Shown here: one piece after another, positions 2,039-5,730 of the stretch | How positions within the stretch are numbered: position 1 is the stretch's first letter | How the letters are laid out: every line of letters starts with the position of its first letter | Origin: an uncultured Bacteroidota bacterium | GTDB taxonomy: Bacteria > Bacteroidota > Bacteroidia > 2-12-FULL-35-15 | Assembly: GCA_903833025.1 (NCBI GenBank) | Contig: CAILDT010000185.1 | Location: 1 to 24,586 of the forward strand | Reading direction: 5' to 3' | Length of the DNA stretch: 24,586 bases | Notes under the pieces: generated by a model | The model's input: the letters and a program-made list of their open reading frames with translations, nothing else | The model's database searches: none | Told to the model about the DNA's origin: nothing | Made by a program: the position numbers and the translations under genes

Positions 2039-2410
2039 TTAAATTACCGGCTTAATAGCCGCCATACTTTTCTGCTGAATCATCCCAAGTTTTATCAATT
2101 TAGGATATGTTTTTTTAATTAAAACAACCCCTTCGTCCGTCAATTTATAATACCATTCATTACTATTTTTTTCTAATTCAACCCTAACAACAAGCTTGTT
2201 TTTAATCAAACTATTTAAACATCTACCCAACGCCACATCACTAATATCTCCAATACTACAAACAATCTCCATCTTTCGCATCGGCTTTATTTTCAAGCAT
2301 AACAGCACCTTGTACGTCCAAGTTGGCTCCACAAGTTCAATAAAAACAGCAATCGAAAGTAATGCAGCATTACTTTTTATTTGTTTAACTTTTTTAACAA
2401 ATTTTTTCAT
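2039..2410 (-). CDS. HxlR/MarR-type winged-helix transcription regulator (likely start ATG 2410, 123 aa)
   Basis: WTYKVLLCL..KPMRKMEI...IGDISDVALGRCLNSLIKNKLVVR...YYKLTDEG follows the HxlR pattern W..IL..L..GP.RF.EL...I.GIS...L...L..L....LV.R......Y.LT..G. The -7 box at 2432-2439 favours the ATG at 2410 over the TTG at 2443. Confidence 0.7.
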   Translation of the reverse strand: MKKFVKKVKQIKSNAALLSIAVFIELVEPTWTYKVLLCLKIKPMRKMEIVCSIGDISDVALGRCLNSLIKNKLVVRVELEKNSNEWYYKLTDEGVVLIKKTYPKLIKLGMIQQKSMAAIKPVI

Positions 2411-2431
2411 AATTATAAAATTAAGTTTAAT

Positions 2432-2439
2432 CAAAGATA
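2432..2439 (-). promoter_or_regulatory. Bacteroidota -7 element (TATCTTTG)
   Basis: Exact TAnnTTTG on the minus strand, 21 nt upstream of the ATG at 2410. Confidence 0.65.
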
Positions 2440-2595
2440 ACAAATCAAAATTTAGGATTTAAAAGACTAACAACACTGTTAGTGAAATAATTTAGCATAA
2501 TTAAAATATCGTACTTCGCACCGTAAAATAAAAACACAACACCCGTTCATTCAATTTTACAAAAGCAAATTTTATCAAAGAAAACAGAAAAACAC

Positions 2596-2805
2596 TCTTT
2601 GATAAGTCTCAAAGATAGTGAGCTAATAAAAGAGAACTCTTTGATGAGCTCAAAAGATAGTGAGCTGATAAAAGAGAGCTCTTTGATGAGCTCAAAAGAT
2701 AGTGAGTTGATAAAAGAGAACACTTTGATGAGCTCAAAAGATAGTGCGTTGATAAAAGAGAACACTTTGATGAGCTCAAAAGATAGTGCATAGATAAAAG
2801 AAGAT
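2596..2805. repeat. Tandem array of 5 x 42-bp units with no spacers
   Basis: Units start at 2596, 2638, 2680, 2722 and 2764. Consensus is close to WCTTTGATGAGCTCAAAAGATAGTGMGYTGATAAAAGAGAAC. Confidence 0.98.
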
Positions 2806-2873
2806 TTTAGCTAAAAATTGCCATAAACAAATAGAACAAATAACAATTAATAATAAAACTAAAAACTAAAAAA

Positions 2874-3827
2874 ATGCCAGCAATTACACAATGGTTACCC
2901 GCAGAAAACTTCATCCGCAACGGAGTACGCAAAAACATAACAAGAGCATTAGCAGTTAGCTGGTGGCACTTCAATGCCCTCACAGCCGCAAGAGCAAACC
3001 CCGCCATATTAGCACTACTCATACTATACACCCCATTTCACACCAACTTAGTAAACGCATCAGCCCTAAAAACAGGCAGCAGAGGCACACAAAAAAGCGA
3101 TACAGCAGCCAAAAACCTCCTCTTCCTAATGATGACACAAGAAAAACTACCAATGTGGATGCAAATGATAGGAAACATATACCCAATAGGGTCGCTCGGC
3201 TGGATAAACCTATTCCCCAACGGAATGAAACACTTCAACACCGGCACCATCGCCAACAAACTATTAGCACTCCAAATCCTGCGAGACAAATGCGCCTTAG
3301 ACGGCACACTAATAGCCGTATCACCACTAATAACAGCCTTCTACCTCCTCATCGAAAGCGCACGCACCAACCAACAAGGCGAAAAAAGCACCGTAGCCAT
3401 CAACATCTCCGACCAACAATCAGCCATCGAAGCAATGTGCATCCAACAATTTTCCAGCTACGGCACCATCGTATCCCTAAACCCCAATTCGCCCACCATC
3501 ATCAAATCCTACATAGCAGTGTCCGAACTCCAAACAACACCCCACGGACCAATATACACAGGCAAAGTAAACGCCAAAAAAATAAAATGCTACGTCACCA
3601 AAAAAGCAACACCAACCACCAAAATCCTCGTAAACTGCGATGTAGATTGTATGGTATGGATAACCGATTCCATCAACAACCCCAACCACCCCATCGGCGG
3701 CTACGTACCAGCAGGCGTACCCACCACAGTTGCGTTTCCCGTACTCGGCAACTACAACAACCGCGTATTCCAAATCCAAAACCTAAGTTTAATCACGCAA
3801 GGCAACTACAGCATCGAATTCTTATAA
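2874..3827 (+). CDS. Uncharacterised 317-aa protein: helical N-terminal ~215 aa and beta-rich C-terminal ~95 aa
   Basis: Long ATG-started ORF behind an A-rich leader (TAAAAACTAAAAAAATG), with coherent codon periodicity (wobble positions almost all A/C). No signal peptide or recognisable catalytic motif. Confidence 0.85.
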   Translation: MPAITQWLPAENFIRNGVRKNITRALAVSWWHFNALTAARANPAILALLILYTPFHTNLVNASALKTGSRGTQKSDTAAKNLLFLMMTQEKLPMWMQMIGNIYPIGSLGWINLFPNGMKHFNTGTIANKLLALQILRDKCALDGTLIAVSPLITAFYLLIESARTNQQGEKSTVAINISDQQSAIEAMCIQQFSSYGTIVSLNPNSPTIIKSYIAVSELQTTPHGPIYTGKVNAKKIKCYVTKKATPTTKILVNCDVDCMVWITDSINNPNHPIGGYVPAGVPTTVAFPVLGNYNNRVFQIQNLSLITQGNYSIEFL

Positions 3828-3838
3828 ATAAATAAAAT

Positions 3839-3911
3839 CTCCGCTACGCGAAATGAAGAATTACATGTAACCACCAGAGTGTGCCTCCGGCAGTCGGTGC
3901 GTAGCACGCAC
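3839..3911. repeat. Cluster of small GC-rich triloop hairpins (degenerate REP-like)
   Basis: CCGC-TAC-GCG at ~3841, GTGCC-TCC-GGCA at 3881 and a perfect GTGCGT-AGC-ACGCAC at 3897-3911, in an otherwise AT-rich intergenic region. Confidence 0.35.
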
Positions 3912-3987
3912 GTATTTTCACATCACCGCCAATTTTGAAGATTATCACATATATCGAAACATAAAATACTACCACCCCCATAGTTAT

Positions 3988-4029
3988 ACCACCCCCCAGC
4001 CCCCTCCTTGAAGGAAGGAGGGGGTGACG
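3988..4029 (-). repeat. CGTC-tagged palindromic REP-like element, copy 1
   Basis: Reverse complement reads CGTCACCCCCTCCTTCCTTCAAGGAGGGGGCTGGGGGGTGGT, with stem CCCCCTCCTT/AAGGAGGGGG. Confidence 0.9.
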
Positions 4030-4065
4030 CATCTTGAAGTACTATATATGCAATTGTTTTTTTTA

Positions 4066-4112
4066 TGTCCCTCCCCCTCCTTCCTTCAAGGAGGGGGATA
4101 AAGGGGGTGGTC
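4066..4112 (+). repeat. Palindromic REP-like element, copy 2 (variant), inverted relative to copy 1
   Basis: TGTCCCTCCCCCTCCTTCCTTCAAGGAGGGGGATAAAGGGGGTGGTC. Its tail ATAAAGGGGGTGGTC is repeated at 4118-4132. Confidence 0.85.
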
Positions 4113-4177
4113 CAATAATAAAGGGGGTGGTCTAAATAAAGACAGTCGTCTAACAATATTCCATATCTTTACACACA

Positions 4178-4530
4178 ATGCAAATCCATAATAAACCATC
4201 ATTAAAAGCCATACGTCAAGATTTGCGTAACAACGCCACCTTCGAAGAAACCCTCCTTTGGCAACAACTCAAAGGAAGCAAACTAAATAATAAGAAATTC
4301 AGACGACAACACAGCATCGGCAATTACATTGTCGACTTTTATTGCCCCGAAAACAAACTAGTAATAGAATTAGATGGTGGAATACATTCCACAAAAGAAG
4401 CAAAAGAAAAAAAGACCAACACCGAGATTAAAAACTTATCAATTTTGGATTAAAAGTACTTAGAATAGAAAACGAAGAAGTAATAAAAGACATAACTTCA
4501 GTATTAGAAAAAATAAAACAACAATTATAA
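4178..4530 (+). pseudogene. DUF559 / Vsr-like PD-(D/E)XK endonuclease, disrupted by a frameshift and a nonsense codon
   Basis: DUF559 motifs LRNNAT.EE.LLWQ.LK, FRRQHSIGNYIVDFYC and LVIELDGGIH. The expected C-terminus (DQHRD*KLINFGLKVLRIENEEVIKDITSVLEKIKQQL) continues in the -1 frame after the A7 run at 4407-4413, with an in-frame TAA at 4429-4431 and a final TAA at 4528-4530. Confidence 0.85.
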
Positions 4531-4537
4531 ACTGCCA

Positions 4538-4580
4538 CGTCACCCCCTCCTTTTTTTCAAGGAGGGGGCTGGGGGGTGGT
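4538..4580 (+). repeat. CGTC-tagged palindromic REP-like element, copy 3
   Basis: CGTCACCCCCTCCTTTTTTTCAAGGAGGGGGCTGGGGGGTGGT, 7 bp after the DUF559 stop codon. Confidence 0.9.
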
Positions 4581-4606
4581 AGCTACATTACAACAACTTT
4601 TTTTAT

Positions 4607-4614
4607 TACATTTG
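4607..4614 (+). promoter_or_regulatory. Bacteroidota -7 element (TACATTTG)
   Basis: Exact TAnnTTTG 21 nt upstream of the ATG at 4636. Confidence 0.65.
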
Positions 4615-4635
4615 TACAACTAAAAACAAACCCCA

Positions 4636-5730
4636 ATGAAAAAACAACTACTACCACTACTAATTATATTATTAAATATAATTCAACAAACCAACCTCCA
4701 CGCACAAGCATTAACAGCCCACGGCGGAGGACCGTTTGCCGTATGCGCAGGCACACCAGTAGTAATAGGCAGCAACCCCACCGCCACAGGCGGCACACCC
4801 GGCTACACCTATTCGTGGAGCCCCGCCACAGGATTAAATTCAACCTCAGCAGCCAACCCAACAGCAACACTAACAAACACAACAACATACACCCTCACAG
4901 TTATGGATAACGCAGGCGGCAGCGCAACAGCCACCACAACAGTAAACATAACACAACCACCAACAGTAGCAGCAGCAGGAGCAAACCAAACTGTATGCGG
5001 AACAACAGCAACATTGGCAGGCAATGTTGCCGCCGTCGGTTCAAGTATCTGGACATTAATAAGCGGCGCAGGAACTATAACTACACCCACTTCACCAACA
5101 ACTGGCATTACAAGCATAGGAGTTGGAGCCAATGTATTTCAATGGACAATAAGTAATGCACCTTGCACCGCATCCTCAAGCCAAGTAACTATTAATGCTA
5201 CACCACCCCCAACAGTAGCAGCAGCAGGAGCAAACCAAACAGTATGTGCTACAGCAACTTTAGCAGCCAACGTAGCAGCAACAGGAACAGGAGTCTGGAC
5301 ATTAGTAAGCGGCGGTGGAACCATCACAACACCTGCTTCACCAACATCAGGATTAACAAACTTATCATTGGGTGCAAACGTATTTCAATGGACGATAAGT
5401 AATCCTCCTTGCCCTTCATCATCAAGCCAAGTAACTATATTCAACACCTGCACAGGCATATATGAATATACCGATGAAAACACCATCTCAATATACCCTA
5501 ACCCCTCAACAGGCGTATTTACAATAGAAAGCGCAAACAGTAAAATAGAAAGCATAAAAGTGTTTAATCTGTTAGGAGAAGAAATATTAACAGTTACACC
5601 AAATAATCATACAACAATAATCAATAACCAATTCTCAAAAGGAATATACTTCATACAAGTAACTTATTGTTCGACAAGCTCACCAACAGACAACAAAACC
5701 GTTATAAACAAAAAGATAGTAATACAATAG
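4636..5730 (+). CDS. T9SS type A cargo protein with PKD/Ig-like repeats
   Basis: Signal peptide ending HAQ, two ~83-aa repeats (PPTVAAAGANQTVC...W...FQWTISN.PC.SSSSQVTI, 249-bp period) and a sorting domain (IYPNPS.G.F.I, VFNLLGE, GIYFIQV, KKIVIQ). Confidence 0.9.
   Translation: MKKQLLPLLIILLNIIQQTNLHAQALTAHGGGPFAVCAGTPVVIGSNPTATGGTPGYTYSWSPATGLNSTSAANPTATLTNTTTYTLTVMDNAGGSATATTTVNITQPPTVAAAGANQTVCGTTATLAGNVAAVGSSIWTLISGAGTITTPTSPTTGITSIGVGANVFQWTISNAPCTASSSQVTINATPPPTVAAAGANQTVCATATLAANVAATGTGVWTLVSGGGTITTPASPTSGLTNLSLGANVFQWTISNPPCPSSSSQVTIFNTCTGIYEYTDENTISIYPNPSTGVFTIESANSKIESIKVFNLLGEEILTVTPNNHTTIINNQFSKGIYFIQVTYCSTSSPTDNKTVINKKIVIQ

Follow-up and report, generated by a model that had tools for sequence, protein, structure and literature searches.

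Local, strand-specific substitution bias is known from several systems. On the heavy strand of animal mitochondria, C>T and A>G changes form a gradient, and kataegis and break-resection tracts are recognised by a central strand switch and a deaminase motif. GRINS carry intense GC and TA skews of the same sign, strongest at third codon positions, and their authors left the mechanism open, gave no anchor and mentioned single-copy skewed regions (PMC8256042). REP/REPtron elements and the hairpin ends of IS200/IS605 are imperfect hairpins scattered through intergenic DNA, of which one strand is functional (PMC6006769, PMC8266576); no flanking substitution bias was described for REPs in the literature searched. 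Here we analysed a patch of A/C excess in a 24,586-nt stretch from an uncultured Bacteroidota bacterium (CAILDT010000185.1; "the window" denotes this whole stretch), together with two hairpin repeats, famA and famB, enriched in such patches of the genome. We consider that famA and famB are cis-acting, oriented anchors of a DNA-processing event directed at one strand, a reading to which we assign a probability of about 55%. The features of the window involved were the following:

2046..7700, plus strand: patch of A/C excess (G/T excess on the minus strand), with a core at 2046-6018, a tail to about 7700 and the left side cut at about 2040
3840..3951, minus strand: famB hairpin repeat, 114 bp, the putative patch anchor near its middle, with C-GNA-G mini-hairpins on the minus (G/T-rich) strand
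2874..3827, plus strand: 317-aa orphan gene, the most biased passenger, belonging to no family and with unbiased element-free homologues
2039..2410, minus strand: HxlR-like winged-helix gene, whose G/T-ending codons provide a mirror control
4636..5730, plus strand: gene of a T9SS-sorted protein with PKD domain, holding the steep section of the right-hand gradient
5806..8490, plus strand: T9SS-sorted gene, holding the gradient tail and the far sorting domain
1707..1973, minus strand: orphan RelB/Phd-like antitoxin gene just beyond the patch, with a weak opposite bias

Within the first 100 codons of the 317-aa gene, the 90 scored codons ended in A (51), C (34) or T (5) and never in G, exactly reproducing the 85 A/C endings counted in an initial annotation made from the sequence alone. 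The complete gene had A/C endings at 281 of 302 codons, the third rank within its own genome, in which the mean was 0.49 ± 0.08. That annotation had also held that the bias follows the strand. Indeed, the oppositely oriented HxlR gene was the mirror image with four C-ending codons, and intergenic DNA inside the patch was biased as well, while the 42-bp tandem array was not. After normalisation by codon family, the A/C excess on the plus strand was +0.18 in the HxlR gene (z = 4.3) and +0.46 in the 317-aa gene (z = 17). To the right it fell from +0.43 (4636-4980) to +0.29 (4981-5730), in agreement with the gradient noticed earlier within this gene, and then to +0.15, +0.12 and +0.04 out to 8490; the tail extended to about 7700, past position 5730, where the piece first inspected had ended. 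The GC and TA skews of 2039-5730 were both negative on the plus strand, and the amino-acid composition was shifted (Thr 1.20/0.91, Gln 1.27/0.91, Val 0.80/1.31). The two homologous sorting domains, proposed as an internal control, gave 18 changes toward A/C against nine away, counter-examples included, so that this comparison was weak. Correlation from sub-window to sub-window inside the patch was low (-0.04 to 0.28).

The left edge of the patch at about 2040 was step-like. The initial annotation had placed a sharp polarity boundary here on account of an opposite bias in the antitoxin gene. The sign was reversed as claimed (-0.17), a value that 2% of 85-codon stretches drawn at random also reach, and the reverse bias is therefore only suggestive. 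The left boundary is a tent cut off, with a polarity switch there unproven, and the edge may be a rearrangement junction. A step of this kind would suit an origin of the bias in ordinary replichore skew, in codon selection or in a segment that was inverted or transferred. However, replichore skew in the genus was about 0.02-0.03, far below the 0.46 of the 317-aa gene, and the bias was graded on both sides. Gradients also ran within vertically inherited genes (gidA, 0.86 near and 0.53 far), and oppositely directed neighbour genes inside patches were mirror images. These ordinary causes were thus refuted as a general explanation, and we regard them as very improbable.

The same bias recurred at the related locus L173 of a close relative (86% protein identity), where famB directly followed the 317-aa gene and A/C endings reached 280 of 304. 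Distant 317-aa homologues lacking the element had 148 of 310 and 171 of 309. An assembly artefact was excluded because the reading frames were intact and L173, an independent sample, shared both bias and element.

Segmentation of the genome (4.2 Mb, 994 contigs) with a three-state model called 94 patches covering 150,816 bp (3.6%), of which 48 were A/C-rich and 46 G/T-rich on the plus strand. They spanned core genes, including those of transketolase, fabI, gidA, moxR, dinB and ruvC. The A/C bias is therefore not peculiar to the locus in the window. A comparison of all patches against the genome identified two enriched repeats, famA (147 bp, 50 hits) and famB (114 bp, 30 hits). When the flanks of 74 scored copies were read in element-oriented coordinates, 37 exceeded +0.10 and three were below -0.10 (p = 2e-8), against a background of 28 of 420 element-free gaps above 0.10. 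The predicted sign was found in 33 of the 35 patches holding an element. Active copies showed a symmetric tent, of about +0.3 at 0.5-1 kb and about 0 at 3 kb, with the same strand biased on either side; the tents measured 4-5 kb, with the bias declining across 2-3 kb per side. These results demonstrated that the element marks the patch centre, that its orientation sets the sign, and that both sides are affected on the same strand.

The initial annotation had sought the source in the cluster of array, REP palindromes, DUF559 gene and 317-aa gene. This part did not hold, as free copies and homologues of these components were unbiased and the centre of the patch was famB at 3840-3951. The components in question, besides the 317-aa gene, were the following:

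2594..2788, strand not assigned: 42-bp tandem array of 4.6 copies, unskewed and insufficient for a patch
4178..4529, plus strand: DUF559 gene, a passenger, with an apparent frameshift in an A-run near 4410 and a paralogue on C78 without a patch
3988..4112, strand not assigned: inverted doublet of DUF559-type REP-like palindromes, with more copies at 4544-4580 and 5754-5790

The 317-aa gene was unbiased at its homologue loci (L001, L004, L201-L205) and in its paralogues (C215, C103, C837), and the paralogue of the DUF559 gene had a value of 0.00. Bias accompanied five of 33 free tandem arrays, two of 14 free DUF559-type REPs, none of 17 CGTC palindromes and none of 12 heptamer runs. The arrays, CGTC palindromes, DUF559-type REPs, DUF559 gene and 317-aa gene are passengers. 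The genome contained 175 tandem arrays with a period of 21, 42 or 63 nt, that at 2594-2788 among them. Arrays near famA or famB lay on the 5' side of the hairpin, as read along the G/T strand, in 30 cases versus five, suggesting that array and hairpin form a composite unit.

The comparison with congeners bore on the possibility of a reverse or common cause, in which regions prone to single-strandedness would gain the bias and attract elements targeting single-stranded DNA (ssDNA) in a fixed orientation. Values for tkt, fabI, moxR and dinB were 0.89, 0.86, 0.16 and 0.11 here, against 0.44-0.58 in element-free congener orthologues. At the transketolase locus of genome G007, the same gene pair flanked famA in the opposite orientation, and the bias was reversed with it (tkt 0.32 versus 0.89). 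A scan of 380 kb from three congeners that yielded no element yielded no patch either, and the tents peaked at the element. All of this argues against the bias preceding the element, and we judge such a cause distinctly unlikely. gidA of G007 stood at 0.68, and a famA copy oriented to match this bias lay 2 kb upstream of it. Eight further genomes of the genus carried famA, and of the 42 copies there 19 exceeded +0.10 and none was below -0.10. For famB in G007 the sign was mostly as predicted; its copies there occur as inverted pairs (L040:8007-8445, L037:3152-3803), the flanks of which mostly track one copy.

A covariance model of famA, run against 151 genomes of the class, detected the repeat in this subclade only, plus two weak hits elsewhere. 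These led to a similarly built stem repeat common in Flavobacterium, Chryseobacterium, Pedobacter and Bacteroidales, whose putative homology to famA is drawn from the shared stem alone. The sign having been fixed in advance from famA, the flanks of this repeat showed a weak shift of the predicted sign (52 positive, 13 negative; mean +0.024, p = 1e-5, p values here being overstated because the genomes are related). The shift was present in both gene orientations (36 of 46 and 33 of 49) and consisted chiefly of A>G, with C>T inconsistent.

The stem of famA comprised 26 pairs, of which five showed compensatory changes; its G.T wobbles were conserved and can pair on the G/T strand only. GNA triloops are a known stable motif of ssDNA, and nearly all triloop hairpins of the elements, read on the G/T strand, were GNA with a C-G closing pair and a middle base that varied, on stems that covaried. 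Repeat families C, D and E had a weak effect at best. The covarying stem, and the stem plus T-run with which famB ends on the A/C strand, would also be expected if the elements were promoters or small-RNA genes, with R-loops or heavy transcription exposing the non-template strand. Against this, the same strand was biased upstream and downstream and in both gene orientations, no element matched an Rfam covariance model at the gathering score, and GNA triloops are generally known as a DNA motif. A transcriptional origin is accordingly still less likely than the reverse cause.

To polarise the substitutions, we used synonymous sites that are conserved among congeners. T>C had occurred at 55% and G>A at 80% of sites on the A/C strand, compared with 14% and 38% in controls, and the reverse changes were reduced to 17% and 4%, compared with 44% and 16%. 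The derived changes on the folding (G/T) strand are thus A>G and C>T, upholding the spectrum and the local cause supposed at the outset. At four-fold sites, the shift in ln odds was about +2.1 for A>G and +0.6 to +1.3 for C>T, equal upstream and downstream and in both gene orientations. Sequence context was weak (odds ratios 0.09-0.33), with no dominant motif. Animal mitochondria resemble these patches in C>T and A>G on one strand, graded from a fixed site; theirs, however, proceed one way from replication origins over the whole genome, whereas the patches are two-way, local and present at dozens of sites. Kataegis and break-resection tracts share local, strand-coordinated substitutions but switch strand centrally with a deaminase motif, in contrast to the unswitched, weakly context-dependent pattern here. 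Diversity-generating retroelements are likewise local and strand-coordinated, but no template repeat was present here and both A and C changed.

We propose that the element folds on one strand, and that the opposite (A/C) strand would be repeatedly nicked at the element, with its excision and resynthesis proceeding to either side for 1-3 kb, so that the retained strand would accumulate A>G and C>T. The two-sided tent on the same strand excluded strand displacement in one direction, as well as break resection and a single promoter; the strand-displacement synthesis named as one option in the initial annotation was abandoned on this ground. Two chemistries fit the spectrum. In misdirected mismatch repair, the nick would direct MutS/MutL to remove the A/C strand whichever strand is new, and G.T mispairs with G or T on the retained strand would become fixed. 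Alternatively, the exposed retained strand could be deaminated, as the annotation had supposed. In E. coli, excision from a nick runs two ways over a kilobase range, and A:T>G:C changes dominate when mismatch repair is absent. The kilobase range, the two-way reach and the dominance of A>G here led us to lean toward misdirected mismatch repair, which is tentatively ranked first. Deamination is ranked second, as a somewhat less probable possibility; in mitochondria, strand exposure can drive A>G too. Genes for MutS, MutL and UDG were present in the genome; no nicking enzyme was found.

The same spectrum would also arise if the folded (G/T) strand were nicked by an HUH or other hairpin nuclease and a low-fidelity polymerase placed G opposite T and T opposite G. 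The hairpins do lie on the G/T strand, TnpA(REP) recognises the folded strand only and cleaves that one strand, either 5' or 3' of the hairpin (PMC8266576), error-prone synthesis was proposed in the GRINS paper (PMC8256042), and the genome encodes DinB and one Y1_Tnp (RAYT) gene (L169:1300-2060, C200). famA and famB are, like REPs, multi-copy intergenic imperfect palindromes. Their 114- and 147-bp consensus sequences, however, lack the 5' GTAG/GTGG foot and the 21-65 nt length of REPs, no flanking cognate tnpA(REP) was found in the fragmented assembly, and the sole RAYT gene is flanked by a different GTAG repeat of its own. As synthesis from a nick is one-way and the tent two-way, nicking of the folded strand is an unlikely origin, though less so than the reverse cause.

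Several observations weigh against famA and famB acting as oriented anchors. About half of the elements were silent copies without a patch, and 59 of the 94 patches contained neither repeat, 39 of them reaching a contig end and 20 being internal. Activity was independent of element age for famA (famB, rho = -0.36, p = 0.09), and far-field skew failed to predict which copies have patches. Replichore direction likewise showed no link with activity, at low power. Discordant cases were C591, C637, C571, C779, L279 and L301, together with two further loci in genome G058, and G006, with 17 famA copies, reached only +0.03 (12 of 14 positive), which makes it a weak carrier beside the strong carriers G000, G037 and G058. 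The genes adjoining the elements revealed no coding partner, and third positions were close to saturation. The central GNA loop was dispensable, as active G058 copies lacked it, and generic GNA hairpins had no effect (four concordant, five discordant); the determinant is therefore more likely to be the outer stem, which is conserved. The discordant famB copy of C591 (L170:4072-4184) has one stem base altered, and in the discordant famA copy of L301 (L301:1-170) the loop is swapped for another palindrome, with a second repeat family 1 kb away.

The skew signature itself is already known from GRINS; the anchor is new relative to the literature searched. That literature, incompletely covered, held no description of an oriented repeat setting a local strand bias, and GRINS were the only comparable system. 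The region 2039-5730 gave values of 0.27 and 0.29 for one GRINS membership measure and agreed with GRINS in third-position skew and amino-acid composition, the Thr/Gln/His versus Val/Gly shifts also being seen here. The duplication typical of GRINS (>500 bp, >80% identity) was not observed, the best non-self match being 254 bp at 78%, and one of the 94 patches possessed such a duplication. GRINS spread by gene conversion between paralogues, whereas the patch genes here are single-copy orthologues with normal protein identity to their orthologues. The patches also differ in lying in housekeeping genes, in forming smooth 4-5 kb tents instead of abrupt flips, and in being anchored on an oriented non-coding repeat, which is unreported for GRINS.

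The feature is real and replicated across species, while its mechanism is unproven. On balance, we favour by a small margin the wider view that small Bacteroidota repeats are widespread, oriented, cis-acting mutators producing A>G and C>T on one strand over 2-3 kb on each side, probably by overriding repair strand choice. GRINS-type skews have so far had no known cause, and a mutator, if true, would supply one; the skew here is tied to an anchor of 114-147 bp, with a rule for its sign and a defined reach. Across 3-4% of the genome, a non-coding repeat would then rewrite the codon usage of core genes, their GC content at third positions (about 27% to 50%) and their amino-acid composition. This would bear on repair strand choice in bacteria without MutH, and inferences of expression, gene transfer or binning that rely on codon usage would be led astray by the patches.

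The single G058 patch in 400 kb was located at a contig end, with no element visible. Viral copies of the elements were chance matches only. Searches with the 317-aa protein of fold databases and atlases returned no nuclease and no named family, and a related-loci search with its gene gave no matches; the structure model (pLDDT 58) predicted a helical N-terminal part and a beta-sandwich C-terminal part. The C-terminal part of the DUF559 gene carries on in a different frame past the A-run near 4410, and an in-frame TAA at 7495-7497 divides the T9SS-sorted gene at 5806-8490 into two same-frame open reading frames. In the genome of the window (G000), patches without famA or famB covered orphan 170-320-aa genes adjoining arrays on C79, C118, C161, C496, C510, C675 and C711, and these seven patches were sharp-edged, as though relocated after gaining the bias. 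Strong patches on C220, C688 and C341 of the same genome held dinB, ruvC and a ruvX-like gene, and at C599:901-1030 an A/C and a G/T patch abutted beside a terminator-like hairpin. The module of winged-helix gene, array-bearing gap and 317-aa gene reappeared in other neighbourhoods (L001, L004), and the 317-aa family and famA had nearly identical subclade distributions within the genus.

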